From: a virus
Direction: 5' to 3' (one strand)
Length of the DNA: 28,978 nucleotides
Virus genome (UHGV): UHGV-0201389
The notes beneath the pieces were generated by a model. That model had not been told where the DNA came from. It made no database searches and was given only the letters and a program-made list of their open reading frames with translations. The translations under genes and the position numbers were made by a program. Below, piece by piece: positions 6,971-28,403 of the stretch. Each line of letters opens with the position of its first letter. Position 1 is the stretch's first letter.

Positions 6971-7804
6971 ATGAATATTACACATGATAACTTAGATATT
7001 TTTACTGGAAGCCATGTAGAAGTAAGTATTTCTAACCAGCTAGACAATCAGGTCGACTTTTTCGATCCTAGCTTTAGTGGTATGGAGAACATCGCAGCCT
7101 TTCCTACGCTGACAGAATCAACCGAGATCGAGACTTACGAAGAGTATGATCATGATGCTACTGGTAAGCTGGCTGGCTATCGCAAACTTGAACCGACTAC
7201 GCTCACAGTAAACCGAGTTCTTGACGACGAACATCAAGCAATGTTGATGAAAGCCGTAGAGGATAAAACACCTTTGCGCTTTAGAATGTTCTATGTCGTG
7301 AACTCTGGCTATAGTGCTGCTAACACTGGTTACTATGTCATTTATGATGCTTATGTCACTAGCCATAAAACTCGTGGCGGTGATAACAAAGCTGTAACTA
7401 TGGAATTCAAACTAGAACCAGATGGCGGGATTCTTGCAAGGGGTATTGCAACCGAAGGCCGGATCTTACGTCAGGGTGATTTTGGTCTGGGCGCTGGTGT
7501 AAATCCTTTCACCGGACCTATTGATAGTGAATCTCTGACAGGAAACCGCTTCGTAACCTACAAAGGAACGGCTAGCACTAACCCTTATGGTGCTGATACA
7601 TCGTTAATTCATCTTCAAGCTAATGAGCATGGCGCATGGCAATTAACGTGTAATACTTCCGGTGCTCCACGTTTGCGGGTACGAAATATTCAGGACAACG
7701 GAAAATCGGAATGGATTAAAGTCTATACAACAAATGAGAAGCCAACGCCAGCCGAAATTAATGCGGTTGCTAAGACTGATAGAATCGACTTCGGGGAATA
7801 CTGA
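6971..7804 (+). CDS. Structural protein of unknown function (277 aa)
   Basis: ORF with TAAGGGGTAATAATG initiation motif; ends in TGA but with only 3 open codons downstream; C-terminus has a KPTPAEINAV motif resembling the N-terminus of the next gene. Confidence 0.65.
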   Translation: MNITHDNLDIFTGSHVEVSISNQLDNQVDFFDPSFSGMENIAAFPTLTESTEIETYEEYDHDATGKLAGYRKLEPTTLTVNRVLDDEHQAMLMKAVEDKTPLRFRMFYVVNSGYSAANTGYYVIYDAYVTSHKTRGGDNKAVTMEFKLEPDGGILARGIATEGRILRQGDFGLGAGVNPFTGPIDSESLTGNRFVTYKGTASTNPYGADTSLIHLQANEHGAWQLTCNTSGAPRLRVRNIQDNGKSEWIKVYTTNEKPTPAEINAVAKTDRIDFGEY

Positions 7805-7877: not shown

Positions 7878-10800
7878 ATGCAATCAATCCAATTTAAACG
7901 CACACAGACGGCTGGTAAAAAGCCAACGCCGGAACAATTACAGGTCGGTGAAATCGCTATTCAGATGGCAGACCATGTAATTTATACCAAAGATAAAAAT
8001 AACGCAGTAGTTCAAGTAAGTGTTTCTCCTGAAAGCCATAATGCTTTAAACACGAAAGTAGACAATAACAAGAAAACTACTGATTCTACTATCGCGGCAA
8101 ATAAAACCGAAGCTGCTAACGCTCTGGCTACCGCTAAATCTGAACTGAATAACACCATTACCACGAAAGATACAGCAACCAATAAGCGCATTGATGCTAC
8201 TAACACCACTGTTAGTAACTTAACCCAGACAGTTACGGCAAATAAAACCGACGCTGACAGCAAACATACCACTTTAACTAACACTGTTGCGGCAAACAAA
8301 TCAGCTATTGAAACTACCGTAGCGAATAACAAACGAGATGCGGACAATAAAATCTCAGCTTTAACCACTACGGTTAATGACAATAACACCGCGATCAATA
8401 GCCGTGTTGATGCCACCAACACCAATGTTAGCAATCTGACCAAAACCGTTACAGCTAACAAGTCTGATGCTGATTCTAAGATCTCCAGCTTAACGAGTAC
8501 CGTTGCGGCTAACAAATCAGCCATTGAAACTACGGTAGCGAACAATAAACGCGACGCTGATACGAAGATCACCAACTTAACCAACACTGTTAATAGCAAC
8601 CACACCGCCATTAACGCGAAGGTAGACAAAAACAAGACCGATGCAGATGCAGCGATTGCAGCCGCTAACCGTCGAATTGATGGTATTGAAGGTAGTGCCG
8701 ATGCTGCTTACATCAAGAAGAATACCAATACCTATCATCATGGCTATCTGTTAAGCAAGACTGCTAACTACTTTGATGATACCGGTGCTCGTAACCTTGA
8801 TTATTTTGGTGCGTTTCGTCCGAACAATGCCGAAGGGTGGGGTAACTTAATCCTTAACATTCCTCATTCTGGCGGTAAAGCACACGGTCGCGGCTTTGAG
8901 TTCCATTATGGGTCTAGCTCATCTCAGGTTAAAACCTATGGCTTTGATGCTAACGGTGCTAAAAGATTCAGCTATCGCATGTATCACGAAGGTGATAAAC
9001 CTACACCATCGGAATTGAACGTTTACAGCAAACAAGAAGTTGATCGTATGTTTGTTAAAAACGTTAAAATGTCGGTTCCTTCTGGTGATGCAACTCGTGG
9101 ATATTTTAAGATTGCAACCGCAATGATTCCGCAGCAAGGCAGAATGGCATTTATTCGCATCTATGGTGGTAACGGTTATAACGTTAATTCTTACGATCAA
9201 GTTGACTTTCTTGAAATTGTTATCCGTAGCGGCAACGGAAACCCTAAAGGAGTTAGTATTGCTGCATATCGTCGAAATGCTAAAAATATTCATCAAGTAT
9301 TTGCGGTTAACACTTCCGGTGATAACTACGATATCTACGTTAACTACGGTCGTTATACTGATAACGTTATTGTCGAATATGGTAAAACTAACGATGTTAC
9401 ACTGACGGTACATGACGTTCCTGAAATAACTCTCGTTAAGCCGTCCACTGGTGTTACTGATGGTAAAGTAATTACCATGTTTAACACAGAGAACAAAGCC
9501 GGAACTATTCGTTTTGATGATAATACACAGGGAACTTACGATATTATCAGTTTGTGTAATGATACTGGTGATGGTAAAAAATATCTTCGTCAGTTCCGTA
9601 GTAAATCAGGTCATACTATTTGGCATGAAACTGTTCAGGGTAGCGTGTACCGCCTAGCTACTGGCACTACTGACTCAAACGAAGTTCTTAAAATTACCGA
9701 CCGCACGCTGCAAACTGGTCGTGCTGTTCTTGATGGTGGTAATATTCGTTTAGAACGCCAGACAGGGAATAGTAACCTTGTTGAATATTGGGATCGTCGT
9801 AACGGTGCTAACGTTCGTCAATCATGGTTTGGTTTTGGTAATGCCGACACTAACGCATTCCAGATCTATAGTGATGCTGGTAAAAACAACTTTGCGTTAG
9901 AACAAAGCGGTCAGATCTCTCTTAATGTTGGTGCAACAAAAATTGTCCATACCAACGGGCAATATATTTCAACTAACGCTGATGCATATCGTATGATTTA
10001 CGGTAATTACGGTGCATTCTGGCGAAATGATGGTGTTAAAACCTATCTTCTGTCTACCGCCGAAAATGATAAATGGGGTAGCTGGACTGGAAACCGTCCA
10101 TTCATTTATGAATTTAGTTCCGGTAACGTTAATTTAGGTGGTGATTCCAATAAATCCGCATTGACCTTAGAAGGTGCAAGCAAAGCCGCTCGATTTGGTG
10201 GTCATGTTTATACTGGCGGTAACTTACATAATACTGGACAGCATATAACGATGGAAGCCGGACTTGCTGGACAATCCCGCGATTTTATTCGCTTTAACCA
10301 TTGGGGTGATAGCAGTAACGGTCGTGATAACGTCCTGTATGTGGAAGATAGCAAAGGACGTCATTTCAGCACCGAGCGTAATATGGCTACTGGTGGATTG
10401 AAAGCAAACTTCTTAGGAGACTTTGAAGTTGGTGGTAAATTGACATGGGGTAAAGGTACAGCACAATCCTCGTTTAACTGTCGTGTTTGGGGTAATGCTG
10501 ATCGTAAACAGGTTTTAGAGTGGGCTGATGAAAGCGGTTGGCATTTCTATAGCCAGCGTGCAGGTGGTCCAGGAACTACAGCGATTCAGTTTAGTGTAAA
10601 TGGACAAATCAACGCACAAAACTTGAACGTTTCTGGTAAGGTTACTACCCCGCAAATTAGCGCATTTGGTGTAAACGTTGCTAATGGATTAGGTGGCAAC
10701 TCAATTGTTTTGGGTGATAGTGATACTGGCTTTAAGCAAAACGGCGACGGTATTTTAGATGTATATGCTAACAATGTGGCAGTAATGCGTTTTACTTCCG

Positions 10801-11156
10801 GTGCAATCACCGCAAACAAAGCAGTAAACGTAACTGGTCGAGTTACACCAACTGATTACGGTAACTTTGACGGTCGTTATATCAAAAAGACGAAAGGTTG
10901 TACTAAAATCTGGTCCGGTACTCTCCCTGGTAATACCCAGACCGGAGGTTTACCACAAGATCTCCGCTTCCGTAATGTGTGGATTCTTGACGCCGCAGGA
11001 TTTAACCATTTTATCCGTTTTGCCAATGACGGGAACTATTACCTGGCTGGTAACGGTGGATGGATTAAAATCCAACTTCACTCTAGCGGTAAAATCTTTA
11101 AGAACATTCAAGATTCTAACTTCGTTCCGCGTGAAATCTGGGTAGAAAACGAATAA
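7878..11156 (+). CDS. Tail fibre protein (1092 aa) with conserved fibre N-terminal motif and internal tandem repeats
   Basis: N-terminus KRTQTAGKKPTPEQLQVGEIA resembles the attachment motif seen at the start of many phage tail fibres; ~72-aa Thr/Asn/Ala-rich tandem repeats; Gly/Asn/Tyr-rich C-terminal half. Confidence 0.8.
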   Translation: MQSIQFKRTQTAGKKPTPEQLQVGEIAIQMADHVIYTKDKNNAVVQVSVSPESHNALNTKVDNNKKTTDSTIAANKTEAANALATAKSELNNTITTKDTATNKRIDATNTTVSNLTQTVTANKTDADSKHTTLTNTVAANKSAIETTVANNKRDADNKISALTTTVNDNNTAINSRVDATNTNVSNLTKTVTANKSDADSKISSLTSTVAANKSAIETTVANNKRDADTKITNLTNTVNSNHTAINAKVDKNKTDADAAIAAANRRIDGIEGSADAAYIKKNTNTYHHGYLLSKTANYFDDTGARNLDYFGAFRPNNAEGWGNLILNIPHSGGKAHGRGFEFHYGSSSSQVKTYGFDANGAKRFSYRMYHEGDKPTPSELNVYSKQEVDRMFVKNVKMSVPSGDATRGYFKIATAMIPQQGRMAFIRIYGGNGYNVNSYDQVDFLEIVIRSGNGNPKGVSIAAYRRNAKNIHQVFAVNTSGDNYDIYVNYGRYTDNVIVEYGKTNDVTLTVHDVPEITLVKPSTGVTDGKVITMFNTENKAGTIRFDDNTQGTYDIISLCNDTGDGKKYLRQFRSKSGHTIWHETVQGSVYRLATGTTDSNEVLKITDRTLQTGRAVLDGGNIRLERQTGNSNLVEYWDRRNGANVRQSWFGFGNADTNAFQIYSDAGKNNFALEQSGQISLNVGATKIVHTNGQYISTNADAYRMIYGNYGAFWRNDGVKTYLLSTAENDKWGSWTGNRPFIYEFSSGNVNLGGDSNKSALTLEGASKAARFGGHVYTGGNLHNTGQHITMEAGLAGQSRDFIRFNHWGDSSNGRDNVLYVEDSKGRHFSTERNMATGGLKANFLGDFEVGGKLTWGKGTAQSSFNCRVWGNADRKQVLEWADESGWHFYSQRAGGPGTTAIQFSVNGQINAQNLNVSGKVTTPQISAFGVNVANGLGGNSIVLGDSDTGFKQNGDGILDVYANNVAVMRFTSGAITANKAVNVTGRVTPTDYGNFDGRYIKKTKGCTKIWSGTLPGNTQTGGLPQDLRFRNVWILDAAGFNHFIRFANDGNYYLAGNGGWIKIQLHSSGKIFKNIQDSNFVPREIWVENE
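8187..8618 (+). repeat. Two tandem ~216-nt (72-aa) repeat units inside the tail fibre gene, with a degenerate partial copy upstream
   Basis: RIDATNTTVSNLTQTVTANKTDADSK...AANKSAIETTVANNKRDAD recurs as RVDATNTNVSNLTKTVTANKSDADSK...AANKSAIETTVANNKRDAD; nucleotide copies differ mostly at synonymous positions. Confidence 0.8.
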
Positions 11157-11229: not shown

Positions 11230-11706
11230 ATGTCTCAACAATTCAAAGATATTTTTACTGGTGGTCTGGTAAGTCTGTTCTATCACGCCGATACCACTAA
11301 CACCGCTCTCGATCATGAAAGCTATGAAGAAATTAAAGAGTGTGCTGGTTTCCCTGAAACTGGTATCGAGCGCGGTACTGTAGAAGTTAAATCCTTCTCT
11401 TCTCAGTATAACCGCAAGCTGGTAGGTAAACTGAACGTTCCTGATCTGACTCTGACCGTTAATTATATTCCCGGGGATACCGTGCATGAGCGTCTTATTA
11501 AGGCTGCCGAAGATGGTACCCGTATTCAGATTAAGATTGAATACTATGTTGACGCAGCAAAACAGACTGGTATTCGCACCGCTTTCAACGGCTTTATTTC
11601 TAAAGTTGCTATGCAGGGCGGCGATGAAGAAGTGGTAACTAAAGAATTTACCTTTGCTGTTGATGGTGCTCCGCTGAAACAGGAAATCTTCAATACTGCC
11701 GCTTGA
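11230..11706 (+). CDS. Major tail tube protein (158 aa)
   Basis: TAAGGGGTAATTATATG initiation motif, strong high-expression codon bias, sits directly upstream of the chaperone pair and tape measure gene. Ends in TGA. Confidence 0.75.
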   Translation: MSQQFKDIFTGGLVSLFYHADTTNTALDHESYEEIKECAGFPETGIERGTVEVKSFSSQYNRKLVGKLNVPDLTLTVNYIPGDTVHERLIKAAEDGTRIQIKIEYYVDAAKQTGIRTAFNGFISKVAMQGGDEEVVTKEFTFAVDGAPLKQEIFNTAA

Positions 11707-22229: not shown

Positions 22230-22583
22230 ATGTTAAGCAAATACTTTTCCCGCAAGGAATTCAAATGTAAATGCGGAAAATGTGATTATGATACTATCGA
22301 CGCTGAATTGCTGGTAGTTCTCGATGATGTTCGTGAACACTTCGGGAAACCAGTAATTATTAACAGTGGGAACCGTTGTCCGACTCATAACAAGAATGTA
22401 GGCGGGGCAACCAATAGCTATCACGTTCGAGGCCGTGCGGCTGACATTGTAATCAAGGGTGTCTCCCCTGATATTGTCCATGCTTATCTTGATGGGAAAT
22501 ATCCTACTCAATATGGTCTAGGCAAATATAAAACCTTTACGCATATTGATAGCAGGTCGAAAAAATCTAGATGGAATGGTTAA
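22230..22583 (+). CDS. Peptidoglycan peptidase, Peptidase_M15 (MepK/YcbK-like zinc hydrolase) - probable endolysin
   Basis: YFSRKEF...SGNRCPTHNKNVGGATNSYHVRGRAADI...HID matches the His/Asp/His zinc-binding pattern of M15-family cell-wall peptidases; TAAGGGGGTAATATATG initiation motif; followed by a strong terminator. Confidence 0.65.
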   Translation: MLSKYFSRKEFKCKCGKCDYDTIDAELLVVLDDVREHFGKPVIINSGNRCPTHNKNVGGATNSYHVRGRAADIVIKGVSPDIVHAYLDGKYPTQYGLGKYKTFTHIDSRSKKSRWNG

Positions 22584-22603
22584 TCGTCAATTCACATATA
22601 ACA

Positions 22604-22636
22604 AAAAAGCGCCTCACAATGGCGCTTTATTTTTAT
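22604..22636 (+). terminator. Rho-independent terminator after the peptidase gene
   Basis: Perfect 8-bp stem AAAGCGCC / GGCGCTTT, 7-nt loop, followed by TTTATTTTTAT. Confidence 0.85.
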
Positions 22637-22701
22637 CTGGCGCAAATTGACGATAGCGCCCGTGTCGCGCAGAGTACGAGAAATCAGAATTGAAAGTTGT
22701 T

Positions 22702-22857
22702 ATGGCGGCAGATGATGAGATTTTGCCACTTGACACAAAGATCGCTTATTATCAAATGGTAATGGATTTTGCTGGTCGTGCACTGGATATTGTTAAATCT
22801 CGTGGGTTTGCGATCAAGAATGCTATAGAATTGCGTATGTTGGAATCCGGTCGATAA
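22702..22857 (+). CDS. Small hypothetical protein (51 aa), uncertain
   Basis: Sub-60-aa ORF translated manually; weak RBS; lies between two terminators. Confidence 0.3.
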   Translation: MAADDEILPLDTKIAYYQMVMDFAGRALDIVKSRGFAIKNAIELRMLESGR

Positions 22858-22877
22858 ATATATGCAGGAGGAATTTT

Positions 22878-22964
22878 ATGAGTGAATGTATTTGTAGTGT
22901 ATGCAAACAGCCAGTAGAATTGGCGTTTGTGATTAAAGTAAACGACCATGTTGTTCACCCTTAA
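22878..22964 (+). CDS. Cys-containing micro-protein (28 aa, MSECICSVCKQPVELAFVIKVNDHVVHP), uncertain
   Basis: Consensus SD AGGAGG 7 nt upstream of the ATG; CxCxxC motif; directly upstream of a bidirectional terminator. Confidence 0.35.
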   Translation: MSECICSVCKQPVELAFVIKVNDHVVHP

Positions 22965-22979
22965 AATAACTAATTATCA

Positions 22980-23012
22980 AAAAGCCCCAACCGAAAGGAA
23001 GGGGCTTAATTT
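22980..23012. terminator. Bidirectional terminator at the strand switch
   Basis: AAGCCCC...GGGGCTT stem with internal CC-gaaa-GG, T runs on both strands; abuts the helicase stop codon. Confidence 0.75.
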
Positions 23013-24506
23013 TTATGCGAGCATTATACGTTTTTGAGTCCAGTCGAATTTATCGGATATATAACACTTTATTCTTTCAAGCGCATGACTAACAGCATAA
23101 TTCTTACGGGTAACTTTTCCATTCTTACCCACAATGCAAAGGTCGTCTATCAAATCCCATACTACCGCAATTGCTTTACTACCATGTTTCCTAAGAGCAC
23201 GTCCTATTGATTGCCGGACAATGGTTGATTCTTTAACCGGATGACCAAAGATGACATGGTGTAGATTCTTAATCGAAACACCAGTAGAGAAAACACCATA
23301 GGAGGCAACTACAATCAATCCTTTCTCATTTTCAGCCATTTTCTTTAAGGCATCGCGTTCGGCGGTGGTAATCTCACTGGAAACGTAATAAACCTTATCG
23401 TAAACGCGCTGTAATGCATTATAAAGCATTTTTCCATGCTTAGAGTACCGGAACATCAAAAATACGTTTTCTTGCTTTCTAGCGAGTTTTAAGGCCAATT
23501 CACAAGCCAGTTTATTCCTTGCTTTGTGACCATTGATGAATTTAATCTCTTCCTGATAATCTTTACCCCGCATTGCTTTACATTCTTCATCCTTGTACTT
23601 GAGGAAGAGAGCATTAATCTTAAGCTGGGTAACTTGTCCGTCATCCATCAATTGTTTTATTGCTACTATCTTCTGAATATCACCAAACAACCCGACATAT
23701 TGCATTAAATGGCATTTTGATTCTTTCGGGGAACCAGTCATACCGATTTTGAACTGGCAGTGATTCATTCCGTTGATGATGTTGGTGATATTCTTTGCAC
23801 TGGCACGATGTGATTCATCAACTATCAACATTCCATATTGTCGGAACCATTCAGGAGGCATCTTGCAAGCTGATTGCCATGTACTGACAGTGATTAACCT
23901 GTCTCCCGGATGTTTCCCGCTACCACTCATCATTGTATGGATTGCTTCATGAGGGAATAGCCTATAATCGACAAAATCATCCCTCATTTGAACCACCAGC
24001 GATGTAGTCGGGACAATGATTAGAATCTTTCCGGTGTAGTTCTCCAGATACCAACGAGACAGCATACAAGCAATCAATGACTTACCCGCACTGGTAGGAA
24101 GAACCAGCATTCTACGGCGATTATGGATACCCTGAAATACTGCCTCCCTTTGATACCAGTAAGGATTGATTTTATTGCTACCGGAATACACTTCTAAAGA
24201 GTCAATCCATGAATCAATCTGTTCTTTGGTTACATCTTCCTTCTCAAGCAATCTGGGGTCTACCCATACGCTATAGCCCATGTTTTTAGCGAAGATACCC
24301 AATGTTTTCAATAATCCGATTGGCAGGGTATTTTCATGCGTAAACAGTCTTATCTTTCCATCCCAGCCGGAATATTTGTAGCGGGGGCTAAATCTAGCCC
24401 CTTCAACCTCAAACGAGAAATAATCTCTTAATTCCATCCCAATGGAAGGAGAGCATTCAACCTTAACGAAACTGTAATCTTGAAAATGAATGTTAATATC
24501 TTGCAT
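23013..24506 (-). CDS. uvsW: UvsW-type SF2 DNA helicase (start at ATG 24506; the listed ORF extends to GTG 24515)
   Basis: Walker A LPTSAGKS, DExH-type motif II IVDESH, and an N-terminal domain (HFQDYSFVKVEC...LRDYFSF) characteristic of T4 UvsW-like helicases; ATG overlaps the stop of the upstream gene (TAATG). Confidence 0.85.
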   Translation of the reverse strand: MQDINIHFQDYSFVKVECSPSIGMELRDYFSFEVEGARFSPRYKYSGWDGKIRLFTHENTLPIGLLKTLGIFAKNMGYSVWVDPRLLEKEDVTKEQIDSWIDSLEVYSGSNKINPYWYQREAVFQGIHNRRRMLVLPTSAGKSLIACMLSRWYLENYTGKILIIVPTTSLVVQMRDDFVDYRLFPHEAIHTMMSGSGKHPGDRLITVSTWQSACKMPPEWFRQYGMLIVDESHRASAKNITNIINGMNHCQFKIGMTGSPKESKCHLMQYVGLFGDIQKIVAIKQLMDDGQVTQLKINALFLKYKDEECKAMRGKDYQEEIKFINGHKARNKLACELALKLARKQENVFLMFRYSKHGKMLYNALQRVYDKVYYVSSEITTAERDALKKMAENEKGLIVVASYGVFSTGVSIKNLHHVIFGHPVKESTIVRQSIGRALRKHGSKAIAVVWDLIDDLCIVGKNGKVTRKNYAVSHALERIKCYISDKFDWTQKRIMLA

Positions 24507-25075
24507 TAGTTCCACTCCACACTTGCAATATTCTTTATATTGTTTAGTGATTTATTGCAGTAGTGGAATGTTTCAGTTTTGCCGTATTCAATCCCGCCTA
24601 TACCCACATCCAACATTCTCTTTATTGCTCGCTCAGTGGCTAGCGCATGTTTCATTGATGGCATTTCACGAGCATAGACAATATCAAAGTTATGACCGGG
24701 ATTGCGTAAGCCCAGATTAACCCTACGTTTGATAATCGATTTTGTTACACCAAATTTACCAATATCGCCGGATTGCATCACATAGAGATATGGTACACCC
24801 GCTTTATATTGAAAATAATCACTCTTGAAACATACACAGCGTTTGCCTTCATTAAGCAGGTTAGTAGCTGATTTGTCGGCTCTATCACCGCAGCGAGTAC
24901 ATGTAAGAGCAATTCTCGTGTGAAGCCCTTTAAACTCACCCAGAAAGCCATGAAAGACTAACGGTAAGTCATTATCTTTGATGTGAGTAAGAATGCGTTG
25001 TTCTAATGCTGGTGGAGTTACAGCACGGGATGATTTAGGAGTAAAAACAATATCTTTAGCCATTACTGGAATCAT
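24506..25075 (-). CDS. Zn-ribbon + T5orf172/GIY-YIG-like domain protein (189 aa)
   Basis: CTRCGD...CVC zinc-ribbon-like Cys cluster followed by YLYVMQ...KFGVTKS...R...GKTETF, matching the T5orf172 (GIY-YIG-like) pattern; SD GTGAGG upstream; coupled to the helicase gene. Confidence 0.65.
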   Translation of the reverse strand: MIPVMAKDIVFTPKSSRAVTPPALEQRILTHIKDNDLPLVFHGFLGEFKGLHTRIALTCTRCGDRADKSATNLLNEGKRCVCFKSDYFQYKAGVPYLYVMQSGDIGKFGVTKSIIKRRVNLGLRNPGHNFDIVYAREMPSMKHALATERAIKRMLDVGIGGIEYGKTETFHYCNKSLNNIKNIASVEWN

Positions 25076-25229
25076 ATAGACCTCACTTTAACTTATAGGC
25101 AAAACCCTCAATATGGTTGGTTTGTAACTTTAGGGTCGCGGATTATATATCAAAGTTAGTACAGATGCAATAGTGAGATAATTTTATCCAATAAATAGTA
25201 GTGAACTTATAATTTTAGAGGAAACTACT
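25076..25229. promoter_or_regulatory. AT-rich divergent intergenic region with candidate sigma70-like promoter for the + strand gene
   Basis: TTGTAA (25122-25127), 16-nt spacer, TATATA (25144-25149); SD AGAGGA before the ATG at 25230; a leftward promoter for the helicase operon is expected here too but was not resolved. Confidence 0.4.
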
Positions 25230-26255
25230 ATGAAACTAGCATTTGCCAAAGACATTGATTTTGTGAAAGTTGGTAAGCAGAAAACACCGCAATTCTACGA
25301 AGAAATCTGTATTGAATATGCACACAAGACTAAGAAGACTTTCAAAGGATTTATCCTACCGTGGGAAGCCAACCGAACCAGAACAATGTTTATTGACAAT
25401 GAAAGCGGTAAAGAATCTACACCGATGTTGATCAACGTTCGTACATCATGGGGGAAGGTTAAAGGATGCAAACTGGACAAGGGTATCAGTCCGACGGTAA
25501 AACATAAGGCAATGAATCTTTCCAGCGAGAAGAAGCAACAAAAATTAGAGAAACTATACTCAGATGTGAGAAAAGCCGTGGAACACGGTAATAATAAACT
25601 GATTCGAATCACAGGAGAGTTACCAAGCCGCTATAAGTCATATGCTGAATGTAAATGTCTTATCCATAATGAAATCTTTGTTCGAAATTGTCGGGACTTG
25701 ATTCATAAAGGTAGCGCCGCGTGTCCTCAGTGCTTATCTGTCATGCGTTCTATGCAAAATGGTATTTCTCATTACAAATATCATGGAAAAATCAGACCTG
25801 TATCTCTCTATATCCAGTCTCTAGATAAAGAGTTCATCAAATTTGGCATCTCTATCAATCCAGAAGCACGAATGAGAGAACAACAAAGAAACTCACCATT
25901 CATTCATAGTCTGGTTTATACGCATGAATTTAAGGAAGGTTGGAAAGCAGTTGATGTTGAATATGGAATTAAAACCATTTTTAAAGGAAAGAAACTAACC
26001 ATTGATGATTTATCGACCGGATATACAGAAACACGGGATTACAAGTTACTCTCAGAAATTATTAAATTCGTTGATGATTACATCAAAACCGATCCTACCG
26101 TACCGCAATACATTCAAGACGAAAATGAATTCTGGTCACAGATTGGCGGTGATTTTGAACTAGAAGAATCAACGTTCGTGTTTCCAGATACCAGCGATGA
26201 GGAATATTACAATAATTTAGCAGAACTTGATTTAAGCCCTTTAGACACTCTCTAA
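25230..26255 (+). CDS. Zn-ribbon + T5orf172/GIY-YIG-like domain protein with extra N-terminal domain (341 aa)
   Basis: CKC...C...CPQC Cys cluster followed by LYIQS...KFGISINPEAR...GYTETRDY, paralogous in architecture to the 189-aa protein on the opposite strand; acidic C-terminus. Confidence 0.65.
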   Translation: MKLAFAKDIDFVKVGKQKTPQFYEEICIEYAHKTKKTFKGFILPWEANRTRTMFIDNESGKESTPMLINVRTSWGKVKGCKLDKGISPTVKHKAMNLSSEKKQQKLEKLYSDVRKAVEHGNNKLIRITGELPSRYKSYAECKCLIHNEIFVRNCRDLIHKGSAACPQCLSVMRSMQNGISHYKYHGKIRPVSLYIQSLDKEFIKFGISINPEARMREQQRNSPFIHSLVYTHEFKEGWKAVDVEYGIKTIFKGKKLTIDDLSTGYTETRDYKLLSEIIKFVDDYIKTDPTVPQYIQDENEFWSQIGGDFELEESTFVFPDTSDEEYYNNLAELDLSPLDTL

Positions 26256-26270
26256 CGCAATTAAATTAAA

Positions 26271-26292
26271 AAGGGGTACATCTGTACCCCTT
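26271..26292 (-). terminator. Perfect 22-bp palindrome serving as terminator for the recombinase gene (alternative reading: recombination site)
   Basis: AAGGGGTACA-TC-TGTACCCCTT; on the minus strand the stem is followed by TTTTTAATTT, 37 nt downstream of the recombinase stop. Confidence 0.6.
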
Positions 26293-26328
26293 AAAGCGTT
26301 TAGCTCGTTATACGTCGATTTAGGCCGC

Positions 26329-28008
26329 TTAAATTCCAAATTCTTGCAATGGACCTGGTATTTCTTCTTCTGGTTTCCAGTTCTTATCTGTCAGCATGTC
26401 TAAACATGGATGCAGAACAAGCCCGTTACTTTCCAGAATCTGCCTATCATTGATAGTCTTCAAATCAATGAATATCCGGCCTTTCCTCGTTCCTCTTGAA
26501 TTTTCTATTACAACTCTCTGGGTCTTACCATCAACGTATTCCAGTACAAACAAGTTTTTGTTCCTGTCAATCCTTCTACACCCGATCCGCTTTAGAGCTT
26601 GCTTAATCTTAAACCGGACCTTGATTCGTTCCTCATTGTAAACATCTTCTAAATCAAATTCTGCGAGCTTCTCCCAGCCTTGAGAGTCCACAGAATACAT
26701 TTCCTCTTCTGCCATCTTAATCTGATTGTAGAGTGTTTCACGCTCGCTATTAAGGGCAGTAATCTGATCGGCTAGTTCCTTCGTTGCTCCTGTCATAGCA
26801 GAAAGGGCGATCAGGTTATCAATCTTGCGTGATATTTCATCAATCTGTACTTTCAACGCCGGAACCGGGTTAGCCTTATCCTCAGCAATCCAGATTTTAT
26901 CAGCCAGCAATTGCAATACAGCTTTCTCTAATTGGTCGCCGCGAAAACTCCAGTTTGGATGCTCGCAATCAAGTCTACGTGAACGTGTCGCATCACATGT
27001 ATAACGATACTGGTCAGAACGTTTGTTTGTTCCCTTCACTTTAACCATAGCGCAACCGCAATGATCACATTTCAATAGGCCAATGCCACTAAGCAAGGGG
27101 ATCGGTTTAACTTCTTCCTTATCTCCAAAATTCCATGCTCTAGCACCAATATTTTTCTTAAGGTGATAGAACGTAGGGTCGTCAATAACACGAGGGTAAT
27201 AATTGTTTAACTCATAGTTAACGCCATCTACAGAGACCTCCTTGATACCAATCAAAGCGCGGGTATGGAACAATCTTTCAACCATTGCCCGTGACCATTT
27301 TGAATGCTTCTTATTACTAACCGCTGGTGGTGGTGTATATGTCTCGTTAAGGTGATCCAGTATTTCGGCGGTTGAACGTCCATTCTTCCGTAATTCCACA
27401 ATCTCCTGAACAACAGGGAAGTATGTCGGATGAGGCAGCACATAACCGGAAGTGGTATCAGTCCACCACATATTCTTTCCGACTTCCTCGATAGCAACAG
27501 CCGGATTCTGGGGATTTTCTTGATGAGCTTTAATCTTAATCAATGCGCTTGAGTTAGTACGATTGCGCTTAGTCTGGCTTTCCTCGTTAGCCCTGGCAAA
27601 TAGCATGACACTCAAGAGTAAATCGATGGGATTAGCATTAACCGATTCACGGCTATACACTCTGCCATCCATACCAGTGACAATAGTTATTCCCCTACGG
27701 ATAATCGAGAGAAATAGCTCTTGTGCTTCAATGATGGACTGGCGAGAGATACGGTCCAAGTTTTCCACAACCAACCAGCTACCAACAGGAACGGATCGAC
27801 CAATCTCATCCAGAAAGCGGGATAATGCACCTGTTTTACTGTTAGCCCCTTTGAATGCTGATACACCAAAATCCTGATAGCTTGTAACTAGCTCAAGATC
27901 ATATTTTGCGGCAATCTCTGCGGCTGTTCTCTTCTGGCGTTCATAAGAACTACCATCCGCTTGCTTCATAGACGAGAAGCGAATATACGAATACAGTTTA
28001 GTTTTCAT
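26329..28008 (-). CDS. Large serine recombinase (integrase/resolvase family, ~559 aa from ATG 28008; the listed ORF extends to GTG 28059)
   Basis: N-terminal resolvase motifs YSYIRFSS (catalytic Ser), DFGVSAF, LVVENLDRISR; central recombinase domain; CDHCGC...C...C zinc ribbon; C-terminal coiled coil. Confidence 0.85.
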   Translation of the reverse strand: MKTKLYSYIRFSSMKQADGSSYERQKRTAAEIAAKYDLELVTSYQDFGVSAFKGANSKTGALSRFLDEIGRSVPVGSWLVVENLDRISRQSIIEAQELFLSIIRRGITIVTGMDGRVYSRESVNANPIDLLLSVMLFARANEESQTKRNRTNSSALIKIKAHQENPQNPAVAIEEVGKNMWWTDTTSGYVLPHPTYFPVVQEIVELRKNGRSTAEILDHLNETYTPPPAVSNKKHSKWSRAMVERLFHTRALIGIKEVSVDGVNYELNNYYPRVIDDPTFYHLKKNIGARAWNFGDKEEVKPIPLLSGIGLLKCDHCGCAMVKVKGTNKRSDQYRYTCDATRSRRLDCEHPNWSFRGDQLEKAVLQLLADKIWIAEDKANPVPALKVQIDEISRKIDNLIALSAMTGATKELADQITALNSERETLYNQIKMAEEEMYSVDSQGWEKLAEFDLEDVYNEERIKVRFKIKQALKRIGCRRIDRNKNLFVLEYVDGKTQRVVIENSRGTRKGRIFIDLKTINDRQILESNGLVLHPCLDMLTDKNWKPEEEIPGPLQEFGI

Positions 28009-28061
28009 ACCATTTCCAAACAAAAACGCCCCGACCGAAGTCGAGGCGATATTACACACAT

Positions 28062-28403
28062 TCAGTCTTTGAAGTCGATGGTCACGTTACCTTTAAGGGC
28101 AAGTTCCATTAAGCAACTGCGCTCATCCTTCATGCTCTTACACAATTTCATCCCATAAACGACGAGATTATCTTTCTCTTTCCAATATTTTTGTTTCTCT
28201 GCATAAACCTCGCTATATTCACTATCTTTGAGTGAGAGAGCATTTTCTAACTGGCTAATCTCCTGATTCAGATCCTTAATCTCAGCCTTAGTTGACCGGA
28301 TAGTCTCTTGATGTTGAGTATCGGAATAGTCATACCCACAAGCAAATCCACCAATGCCACCAACACACACAGAAACAATAATTGCGTAGATAGTCTTTTT
28401 CAT
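28062..28403 (-). CDS. Secreted or membrane-anchored coiled-coil protein (113 aa)
   Basis: N-terminal signal/anchor MKKTIYAIIVSVCVGGIGGFA with a possible cleavage or weak lipobox at FA-C; heptad-rich middle; two C-terminal Cys; SD AAGAGGA upstream. Confidence 0.6.
   Translation of the reverse strand: MKKTIYAIIVSVCVGGIGGFACGYDYSDTQHQETIRSTKAEIKDLNQEISQLENALSLKDSEYSEVYAEKQKYWKEKDNLVVYGMKLCKSMKDERSCLMELALKGNVTIDFKD

Follow-up and report, generated by a model that had tools for sequence, protein, structure and literature searches.

The window analyzed here is a 28,978-nt stretch of viral DNA (UHGV virus genome UHGV-0201389) from a temperate E. coli siphovirus, a prophage of ~37 kb that integrates at ycdX. 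Genes encoding TerL, the portal, a protease–MCP fusion, the major tail protein, the tape measure, the distal tail protein and the tail tip are found in the window, and Phage_Tail_Tip and Ig_GpJ_C domains are present in related prophages. Together, this gene set and the domains of the relatives bear out the siphovirus context proposed earlier; the phage is temperate, and its tail tip is lambda-J-like. Roughly 3.6 kb of this genome (window positions ~22640–26250) is a block of T4-like DNA of the Krischvirus (RB49) type, flanked in the window by the endolysin and serine integrase genes. The block occupies a variable slot that has lysis genes on one side and a large serine integrase on the other, and it contains uvsW, a nuclease-like gene directly upstream of uvsW (gene A), remnants of uvsY and uvsY.-2, and a second, paralogous nuclease-like gene (gene B). 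The first-pass annotation overlooked the Krischvirus-like capture of the block as a whole, including the uvsY and uvsY.-2 remnants. An assembly chimera can be ruled out, because many complete E. coli chromosomes carry the identical arrangement at the same ycdX site.

The helicase gene, uvsW, lies on the minus strand (23013..24506); its open reading frame spans 23013–24515(−), and the real ATG at 24506–24504 gives a 497-aa protein, an orthologue of the T4 SF2 branch-migration and R-loop helicase UvsW of Krischvirus type. UvsW_N (PF21241) is matched over residues 6–86 with the full profile covered (E 8.7e-36; 122.7 bits versus a cutoff of 25.3), ResIII and Helicase_C are matched at 7e-20 and 8.7e-9, respectively, and residues 3–496 match T4 UvsW (PDB 2OCA) end to end at E 1.7e-184, all of which are far above chance. 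Prophage UvsW contains the SF2 motifs Walker A (GKS), DExH (DESH), motif III (TGS) and QSIGRALR (with the motif VI arginines), and residues K142, D230, E231, H233, R436 and R439 are unchanged throughout the alignment (A2). The window protein is 75% identical to UvsW of the RB49-like Krischviruses AV108 and G5211 and, over its full length, 53% identical to that of T4. The Pfam matches, the 2OCA alignment and the Krischvirus identity all agree with the initial assignment of a UvsW-type helicase with UvsW_N and an SF2 core; likewise, the view that full-length UvsW otherwise belongs to large virulent phages holds, as every full-length match examined came from a genome >100 kb. T4 UvsW is a characterized enzyme (PMC3016281), and given the 53% identity, prophage UvsW would be expected to act like it in ATP-dependent branch migration, fork regression and R-loop unwinding. 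Across 21 of 21 loci of related prophages, uvsW is stop-free and intact. It appears to be under purifying selection, with a dN/dS of 0.03–0.14 among the prophage copies that could partly come from variation imported from phages selecting uvsW. An essential role as the prophage's replication helicase is ruled out because ~41 of the 58 related E. coli prophage arms do without the gene. Two scans of genome contigs for UvsW relatives (protein; alignment A2) used a few exact peptide patterns and yielded no confirmed locus, a weak negative.

Gene A (24506..25075, minus strand) encodes a homing-endonuclease-like protein of 189 aa (185 aa in the PGAP annotation) with a CapR-type Zn-finger and a probable T5orf172 domain (GIY-YIG fold), in line with its earlier description as a Zn-ribbon/T5orf172, GIY-YIG-like gene. 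Cysteines C59, C62, C80 and C82 are invariant in the family and form the CxxC...CxC motif described for CapR-type Zn fingers (PMC10448857). All members of the gene A family (13/13) match Pfam CapR, the best at 5.2e-5, and the window protein scores 21.9 bits, just under the 24.2 cutoff. The TAA of gene A and the ATG of uvsW share base 24506 (minus strand: GTG GAG TGG AAC TAATG CAA GAT), exactly the reading-frame positions and TAATG overlap first reported. GGAG is found 8 nt 5' of the uvsW ATG, and the Shine–Dalgarno and upstream region of uvsW are carried in the last ~100 nt of gene A. Homology between gene A and the Seg-type endonuclease upstream of uvsW in Krischvirus was considered and rejected (BLASTP against AV108, E 1.6); gene A is a positional analogue of the Seg-type GIY-YIG endonucleases and not a member of that group. 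Relatives of both nuclease-like genes occur as sporadic, free-standing insertions beside essential genes of T4-like and T5-like phages. For instance, homologues of gene A lie between gp14 and gp15 in Lw1, after gene 32 in GEC-3S, and between the major capsid protein and adaptor genes in the T5-like phage NR01. PADLOC and NCBIfam returned nothing specific for genes A and B (PADLOC-DB gave no matches for either), and the helicase showed only a generic SF2 likeness (in PADLOC, PbeA at 1.3e-12, type I REase and others, with partial coverage).

The remaining features of the block lie on both sides of this gene pair. The uvsY remnant (22663..22857, plus strand) is 5'-truncated and retains the last 64 of 135 codons and the stop of a T4-type gene. 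Its product is 100% identical to residues 72–135 of UvsY from Krischvirus G5211 and RB49; at the nucleotide level, it differs from G5211 at 26 positions (86% identity), all of them synonymous. The same reading frame is called UvsY by PGAP in E. coli FDAARGOS_1267. The uvsY.-2 remnant (22878..22964, plus strand) is a 28-aa reading frame resembling the N-terminal part of a 58-aa Krischvirus protein (tblastn, 52% identity over 23 aa, E 0.001), and the Krischvirus nucleotide match extends to 22960. Gene B (25230..26255, plus strand) marks the right edge of the variable slot and encodes a 341-aa protein (phrog_681) whose C-terminal domain is MUG113/T5orf172-like. In the Krischviruses Whisky and JK32, a 361-aa gene inserted between uvsW and uvsW.1 shows 32% identity to it (E 7e-55). 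Gene B is hypervariable among the prophages: its identity to the FDAARGOS counterpart is 58% in a prophage that is otherwise 92–98% identical. The left edge of the slot is marked by a bidirectional terminator hairpin (22606..22628; terminator scan) after the M15 endolysin gene, and prophage variants diverge from the window right after it (22638 onward). An intrinsic terminator hairpin 3' of uvsW (22979..23015, minus strand; MFE −16 kcal/mol) precedes a U-run, has T-runs on both strands and is common to the window-type alleles (L003, L015–17 and L019). Over 44 bp, it shares 95% identity with a terminator annotated in RB43-like T4-type phages. Genes A and B are separated by a divergent intergenic region (25076..25229), the B-proximal 76 nt of which are retained even where both genes are deleted. 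A sigma-70 promoter scan of 22400–26400 found 8 sites, fewer than the 12.9 in shuffled controls, and therefore no promoter is claimed in this interval. The canonical T4 late-promoter motif TATAAATA is present upstream of uvsW in RB49, Whisky and CC31 (at −44 or −37) and is absent upstream of prophage uvsW, where only TATAAAGA is found at −33. Thus, the idea that a superinfecting T4-like phage turns on prophage uvsW is unsupported.

The six T4-like loci examined all have uvsW, uvsY and the baseplate hub genes, conserved and in synteny. The window keeps part of this neighborhood: the remnants of uvsY and uvsY.-2, followed by a convergent uvsW, are in T4-like order and orientation; uvsW.1 and inh are missing from it, and sister prophages have uvsW.1 or a full uvsY. 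The uvsW.1 products of these relatives are 96–100% identical to that of RB49, and other relatives encode full-length UvsY. In the identity matrix, prophage UvsW alleles are 70–84% identical to Krischvirus UvsW and 52–56% identical to UvsW of T4 and CC31. In the homology search, identity was ~50–52% for one Pseudotevenvirus, one Aeromonas phage and one Vibrio phage. The matrix and a neighbor-joining tree of 10 sequences both place prophage UvsW with Krischvirus. We infer the direction of transfer from the conservation and synteny of uvsW in the T4-like phages examined, not from a rooted large phylogeny. Nuclease-like genes come and go at this locus in the T4-like phages as well: 4 nt upstream of uvsW, an endonuclease gene is present in Krischvirus G5211 and AV108 and absent in RB49 and CC31, and the gene B homologue between uvsW and uvsW.1 is present in Whisky and absent in RB49. 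In T4, segE lies between inh and uvsW, and SegE cuts the uvsW gene of related phages (PMC2988022).

The overlap of gene A with uvsW had been taken by the first-pass annotation as a sign of functional pairing between a nuclease and a helicase. The gene identities, the TAATG overlap and the siphovirus context on which that proposal was built all stand, but the functional pairing itself is unsupported, because five lines of evidence speak against it. The same 5' slot holds unrelated homing endonucleases in T4 (SegE), G5211 and AV108, and nothing in other T4-like phages. Strict adjacency of gene A homologues and uvsW is contradicted by the phage loci examined, as the co-occurrence check finds the virulent-phage homologues beside other essential genes and not adjoining uvsW. 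The two genes also assort independently among related prophages: gene A is cut down to a 106-nt stub in 5/21 loci with uvsW intact and elsewhere gives way to an allele of 45% identity; there, the breakpoint falls within the last ~70 nt of gene A, and the adjoining uvsW is 97% identical. The overlap is not conserved, being replaced by a 12-nt gap in a Salmonella relative and a 1-nt gap in L018, and no PADLOC system model fits. The strongest form of the pairing proposal, in which gene A and UvsW would be a dedicated module with coupled translation for stoichiometry, acting on branched DNA in the recombination-dependent replication of the siphovirus, runs into each of these observations except the last and also into the ~41/58 related E. 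coli prophage arms that lack the pair altogether; we consider it highly improbable.

The locus is probably a captured Krischvirus-type uvsW island with a homing-endonuclease-like gene beside its likely target. Its constant element is the intact uvsW, which persists where genes A and B have been lost; the homing-endonuclease-like genes are present, swapped or deleted within the prophage family. Like T4 UvsW, the prophage protein would be an SF2 translocase that uses ATP to drive branch migration of Holliday junctions and D-loops, regression of stalled forks and unwinding of R-loops, and the processing of branched DNA and R-loops for the element or the host may be the benefit that keeps the gene. 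Gene A and the divergent gene B would be free-standing homing-endonuclease-like genes of the CapR-Zn-finger/T5orf172 class (GIY-YIG superfamily). The position of gene A, flush against uvsW in the manner of SegE in T4 and of a GIY-YIG homing endonuclease in some Krischviruses, is best read as a variant of this known homing-endonuclease arrangement. Gene A probably cuts endonuclease-free alleles of the uvsW region in co-resident T4-like genomes, and repair from the endonuclease-bearing copy would result in gene conversion. The TAATG overlap and the predicted co-transcription would then follow from insertion geometry, with the uvsW ribosome-binding site inside the 3' end of gene A, and not from an enzymatic partnership. 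Homing-endonuclease genes of T4 contain expression signals for the genes downstream of them (PMC2988022), and T5orf172 homing endonucleases with CapR Zn fingers lie next to essential genes and at the edges of genetically exchanged regions (PMC10448857). Mosaic tracts occur in prophage uvsW: patches are 97–99% identical to RB49, and in L004, nt 800–1300 of the gene show 91–99% identity to RB49 and the 5' part 57–78%. Such tracts are compatible with homing and are not proof of it. Counting against the homing interpretation, the T5orf172/CapR proteins include some that have been domesticated for DNA binding, CapR among them (PMC8096241; PMC10448857). In addition, the prophage shares homology with a T4-like target on one side only (uvsW), and therefore classical two-sided homing is not obviously possible.

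Two other explanations assign the island a different role. It could be a prophage weapon against superinfecting Krischvirus-type phages, in which the two nuclease-like proteins would cleave the invading genome in or close to uvsW and prophage UvsW (in some variants together with UvsY or its C-terminal fragment) would be supplied too early or in the wrong form, dissolving the origin R-loops of the invader or poisoning UvsX/UvsY recombination. In its favor, the island lies in the kind of slot that accessory genes usually take, with lysis genes to one side and the integrase to the other, and on the opposite strand to the late genes. Its variable and even hypervariable content resembles that of conflict loci, and Krischvirus DNA has been imported repeatedly and recently (97–99% identity). 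T4 makes UvsW late, and once the protein appears, origin R-loops are unwound (PMC3016281); T5orf172 nucleases serve in phage–satellite conflicts (PMC8263062; PMC10448857). We nevertheless regard this role as unlikely: PADLOC fits are limited to generic SF2 similarity, the promoter scan of 22400–26400 is not above chance, and recombination-dependent initiation would still let T4-type phages replicate. A similarly doubtful extension holds that this E. coli and Salmonella prophage family maintains a standing island of T4-type recombination genes (uvsW, with or without uvsY, uvsW.1 and gp27 fragments) plus T5orf172 nucleases, in conflict with Krischvirus and serving as a hub of two-way recombination; if so, shared homology would let temperate phages swap alleles with the core genes of T4-like phages that are strictly lytic.

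In the second of these explanations, UvsW could be kept for lysogenic conversion, benefiting the host or the DNA metabolism of the element itself by acting like RecG or RNase H in R-loop removal and fork rescue, with the nuclease-like genes as mere passengers. When E. coli expresses T4 UvsW, R-loop levels fall and rho, nusG and rnhA rnhB defects are rescued (PMC5909445), intact uvsW is kept once genes A and B are lost, and the 7.4-kb early arm of the prophage contains no other recognizable replication or recombination gene. Such a benefit overlaps with the captured-island explanation and does not exclude it, but as a full account we find it quite improbable, since uvsW is carried by only 17 of 5426 complete E. 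coli genomes and ~29% of related prophage arms, and since the uvsY, uvsW.1 and gp27 fragments among the island variants and the turnover of alleles would be left unexplained.

The usual view of T4-like phages is that they exchange no genes with temperate ones. The intact uvsW, the T4-like fragments and the 97–99% RB49-like tracts provide direct sequence-level evidence that DNA has moved between a virulent and a temperate lineage recently and repeatedly, and this ongoing lytic–temperate gene flow, rather than a new helicase–nuclease machine, is the main interest of the locus. Such gene flow is plausible, given that RB49-type phages are capable of transduction and do not modify their bases (PMC12115623). 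A literature search (UvsW with prophage; Krischvirus with prophage and recombination), incomplete in coverage, found no description of the island. The locus offers a natural test case for asking whether genes of the T5orf172 homing-endonuclease-like kind bring about exchange between phages of different lifestyles, and whether a prophage copy of a lytic phage's late helicase can interfere with that phage. For annotation, it illustrates that a tight overlap of nuclease and helicase genes can be insertion geometry and not a functional operon.

The closest known parallel is segE–uvsW of T4, in which, as with the nuclease-like gene A, a GIY-YIG-superfamily gene is directly 5' of uvsW on the same strand (PMC2988022), and the uvsW locus here has mosaic, gene-conversion-like tracts. 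Unlike segE, gene A appears to be of the CapR/T5orf172 class and has no detectable sequence resemblance to the Seg-type endonuclease that AV108 and G5211 carry, it overlaps the uvsW start, and its genome is a temperate siphovirus prophage and not a T4-like phage. The Krischvirus locus is arranged as inh – [endonuclease] – uvsW – [T5orf172-like gene] – uvsW.1 – uvsY.-2 – uvsY. The window shares with it a 70–84% identical UvsW, a 100% identical uvsY remnant protein, convergent uvsY and uvsW, the endonuclease slot 5' of uvsW (G5211, AV108) and the gene B homologue 3' of uvsW (Whisky, JK32), whereas inh, uvsW.1, the 5' half of uvsY, the 3' half of uvsY.-2 and the TATAAATA late promoter of RB49, Whisky and CC31 are missing (only TATAAAGA is present), and the flanks are the endolysin and serine integrase. 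The T5orf172/CapR homing endonucleases of ICP1 and T5-like phages (Barth, Dunham & Seed 2023, PMC10448857) have the same CxxC..CxC Zn-finger, and a C-terminal T5orf172 domain that gene A probably shares, and are also found next to an essential-type gene, at an exchange boundary and with shuffling of domains and alleles; here, however, the setting is a temperate prophage and the neighbor a T4-type gene. T4 itself has no T5orf172 genes, and neither prophages nor temperate phages are mentioned in that work (PMC10448857). Finally, the SF2 helicase D10 of T5, which has UvsW and XPB as relatives, works on branched DNA and is only 20–30% identical to UvsW (PMC5180179), in contrast to the 53% identity of the window protein to T4 UvsW and its UvsW_N domain, which point to UvsW proper rather than a D10-like helicase.

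By sequence comparison, the helicase is UvsW proper, in contrast to T5 D10, the other protein named for comparison in the first-pass annotation, which is only 20–30% identical to UvsW (PMC5180179). The ORF spans 23013–24515(−), and its likeliest start, an ATG at 24506–24504, gives 497 aa. The protein matches the full UvsW_N profile of Pfam (E 8.7e-36) as well as ResIII, DEAD and Helicase_C. Against the PDB (phmmer), residues 3–496 align to T4 UvsW (2OCA, E 1.7e-184), and the next families, XPB/Rad25, reach only ~1e-14, which bears out the proposed UvsW-type identity. The motifs GKS, DESH, TGS and QSIGRALR were found, and key helicase residues do not vary when the protein is aligned with six T4-like UvsW sequences. 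In a tblastn search of 50,697 phage records, identity was 74.6% to AV108, a member of Krischvirus (RB49-like T4-type phages), ~55% to CC31, ~52% to T4 and ~35% to cyanophages; among the matches listed, all full-length ones came from genomes >100 kb. By homology with T4 UvsW (PMC3016281, PMC5909445), it is predicted to drive branch migration with ATP, regress forks and unwind R-loops. Among prophage copies of uvsW dN/dS is low (0.03–0.14), and the gene is kept in prophages after the neighboring nuclease genes are lost. It may be kept because it helps the element process its own DNA, because it repairs R-loops and forks for the host, or because it interferes with Krischviruses, although no PADLOC model supports this last option.

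The window carries siphovirus late genes (TerL, portal, protease–MCP fusion, major tail protein, tape measure, distal tail protein and J-like tail tip); after them come the M15 endolysin gene and the gene of a large serine recombinase (26329–28059), which presumably mediates integration in ycdX. E. coli chromosomes carry the same arm within ycdX, next to ycdY and csg. In FDAARGOS_1267 (loci L003 and L013; NZ_CP069522.1, ~2920078–2957481), the element is ~37.4 kb and splits ycdX; its 7.4-kb non-structural (early) arm carries a TerS-like gene and one for a Rha/Ant-like regulator, and no replication initiator, helicase loader, primase or recombinase could be recognized in it. Among 50,697 deposited phage genomes there was no close relative. 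Past the integrase, a 113-aa ORF (28062–28403(−)) has weak matches only (Rz-like spanin, 4e-4; PADLOC RTasRmuC, 4e-4, N-terminus), and the small genes between integrase and att site vary among prophage variants.

The region ~22640–26250 is an island of Krischvirus-like DNA in a slot where related prophages differ, as indicated by its uvsY and uvsY.-2 remnants, its T4-like gene order and the relative of gene B. The uvsY remnant (22663–22857(+)) adjoins the helicase gene on its 3' side and encodes 64 residues that match the Krischvirus UvsY C-terminus at every position (100%). Because its nucleotide differences from Krischvirus G5211 are all synonymous (26/26), it must have diverged inside a working uvsY, with no decay since capture. 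A 28-aa uvsY.-2 stub comes next, then a terminator hairpin; uvsW.1 was not found in the window. T4-like genomes have the same order: uvsY, uvsY.-2, then convergent uvsW. Gene B (25230–26255(+); phrog_681, MUG113) is oriented divergently from gene A, the T5orf172-like gene upstream of uvsW, and encodes a 341-aa paralogue of it. Its best phage relative (32%, E 7e-55) is a gene that Krischvirus Whisky and JK32 carry as an insert separating uvsW from uvsW.1 and that RB49 lacks. Between the window and FDAARGOS_1267 (L003 8279–9292), the gene B proteins are 58% identical, whereas the flanking DNA is 92–98% identical. Versions in other relatives are 28–39% identical (332–391 aa), and genes A and B share an N-terminal AKDIxF motif with the Whisky gene. 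At the uvsW terminator, 44 bp (22973–23016) show 95% identity to an intergenic terminator annotated beside gene 2 in ~150 T4-type phages, comprising RB43-like (Pseudotevenvirus), Klebsiella, Cronobacter and Citrobacter phages; these 44 bp were not found at the uvsW locus of the Krischvirus loci examined.

Prophage UvsW alleles cluster with Krischvirus at 70–84% identity, which we regard as within the range between Krischvirus sublineages (81–86%), and are distant from T4 and CC31 (52–58%). Transfer likely ran from a T4-like phage to the prophage, since uvsW occupies the same syntenic neighborhood in 6/6 T4-like loci examined and is mostly absent from the prophage family (present in 17/58 related prophage arms and 17/5426 complete E. 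coli genomes). Judged from sequence identities, exchange between Krischvirus and prophages is ongoing, because three sets of tracts in related prophages are close to Krischvirus. In L004, uvsW is 91–99% identical to RB49 over nt 800–1300 and 57–78% over the 5' 800 nt; UvsW.1 of L020 is 100% identical to RB49; and in L015 (8572–9120) and L016 (8570–9120) (GCA_012319325.1, GCA_041866535.1), two ~280-bp pieces of the gp51/gp27 (baseplate hub) junction stand in tandem, one 97% identical to G5211 and the other 98% to Whisky. Each copy of this segment is called as a short PF09097 ORF, and the pair is bounded by the endolysin gene on one side and a diverged, full-length uvsY on the other. RB49-type phages lack most modified-base genes and are able to transduce (PMC12115623), so a chemical barrier to exchange would be removed. 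The main interest of the island is this evidence for recent lytic–temperate gene flow; literature searches, of incomplete coverage, returned no earlier description of it.

Within the window, a 1092-aa tail-fiber ORF (7878–11156) holds a ~0.95-kb patch (8744–9695) 78–83% nucleotide-identical to gene 37 (gp37), the distal long-tail-fiber gene of RB49-like phages. It is a second Krischvirus-like piece in this siphovirus, and its position is odd: the ORF is flanked by 6971–7804 and 11230–11706, both matching major tail protein phrog_158. L015 (8103–8510) and L019 encode a full-length 135-aa UvsY (51% identical to Krischvirus UvsY, 42% to T4), directly convergent with window-type uvsW and with no uvsW.1 or uvsY.-2 in between. 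A UvsY this diverged may point to a T4-like donor lineage not yet sampled, or to long residence in prophages.

Gene A (24506–25075(−), TAA stop at 24508–24506) matches phrog_681 'endonuclease' (1.6e-18) and itself scores under the Pfam thresholds for CapR (21.9 bits vs 24.2) and T5orf172 (16.3 vs 20). Fifteen homologues were found. In a 13-sequence alignment, four cysteines (C59, C62, C80, C82) form an invariant CxxC..CxC pattern; Y96, Y98, G106, K107, G109, R117, E148 and E168 are invariant too, and members match CapR (13/13), T5orf172 (11/13) and GIY-YIG (4/13). The C-terminal domain is modeled by AF2 as beta-beta-alpha-beta-alpha (pLDDT 80, pTM 0.50). The Zn-ribbon/T5orf172 call thus holds at family and fold level, and the family matches and modeled domain point to a GIY-YIG-like fold upstream of the helicase. 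Gene A has the same domain architecture as the T5orf172 homing endonucleases described earlier (PMC10448857), whose Zn fingers are of the CapR type (CxxC...CxC).

The first-pass annotation, whose gene identities stood, had also suggested that the two genes are functionally paired. Both ORFs indeed lie on the same strand and overlap at TAATG (minus strand, GTG GAG TGG AAC TAATG CAA GAT), with GGAG 8 nt 5' of the helicase ATG, and PGAP calls the same two genes with a 1-nt overlap in related E. coli genomes. The overlap is not constant, being replaced by a 1-nt or 12-nt gap in L018 and a Salmonella relative. Across 21 uvsW-bearing loci, uvsW is stop-free in all (21/21) and gene A full length in 16/21; in the other 5/21 gene A is a 106-nt 3' stub and gene B is gone too. 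Of the 21 loci, 2 have uvsW.1, 4 encode a diverged UvsY of full length and 2 keep the uvsY remnant. Between L015 and the window, uvsW is ~97% identical in nucleotides and gene A only ~50%, except in its final ~70 nt, where identity jumps to 100%; this invariant tail contains the uvsW Shine-Dalgarno. Where virulent phages carry gene A homologues, these are single inserted genes at sites other than uvsW: between gp14 and gp15 in Lw1, after gene 32 in GEC-3S and, in T5-like NR01, between the major capsid protein and head-tail adaptor. The slot 5' of uvsW has other occupants, an unrelated GIY-YIG endonuclease ending 4 nt ahead of uvsW in G5211 and AV108; it is empty in RB49 and CC31, where a TATAAATA late promoter is present instead (exact at −44 or −37 of uvsW in RB49, Whisky and CC31). 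In the window, TATAAAGA (24537–24544, minus strand, −33 from the uvsW ATG) matches T4 TATAAATA at 7/8 positions; it falls in gene A's invariant 3' end, and the match is too weak to interpret. Such loss, swapping, variable overlap and alternative occupancy make an obligate enzyme pair a poor fit and functional pairing unlikely; the two genes are better read as a homing-endonuclease-like gene beside its probable target.

As a homing-endonuclease-like system, genes A and B would direct Zn-finger-guided GIY-YIG cleavage to endonuclease-free alleles of the uvsW region in a co-resident T4-like genome, and repair would then be copied from the prophage allele. Their patterns fit the description of nuclease genes at genetic-exchange boundaries (PMC10448857), and the gene A tail with the uvsW Shine-Dalgarno matches the situation of T4 homing endonucleases, in which signals of the downstream gene are embedded (PMC2988022). 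T4 SegE, a free-standing GIY-YIG endonuclease between inh and uvsW, cuts uvsW (PMC2988022). A homing endonuclease beside uvsW is therefore a known arrangement, although here the endonuclease is of another class and the temperate host is unexpected.
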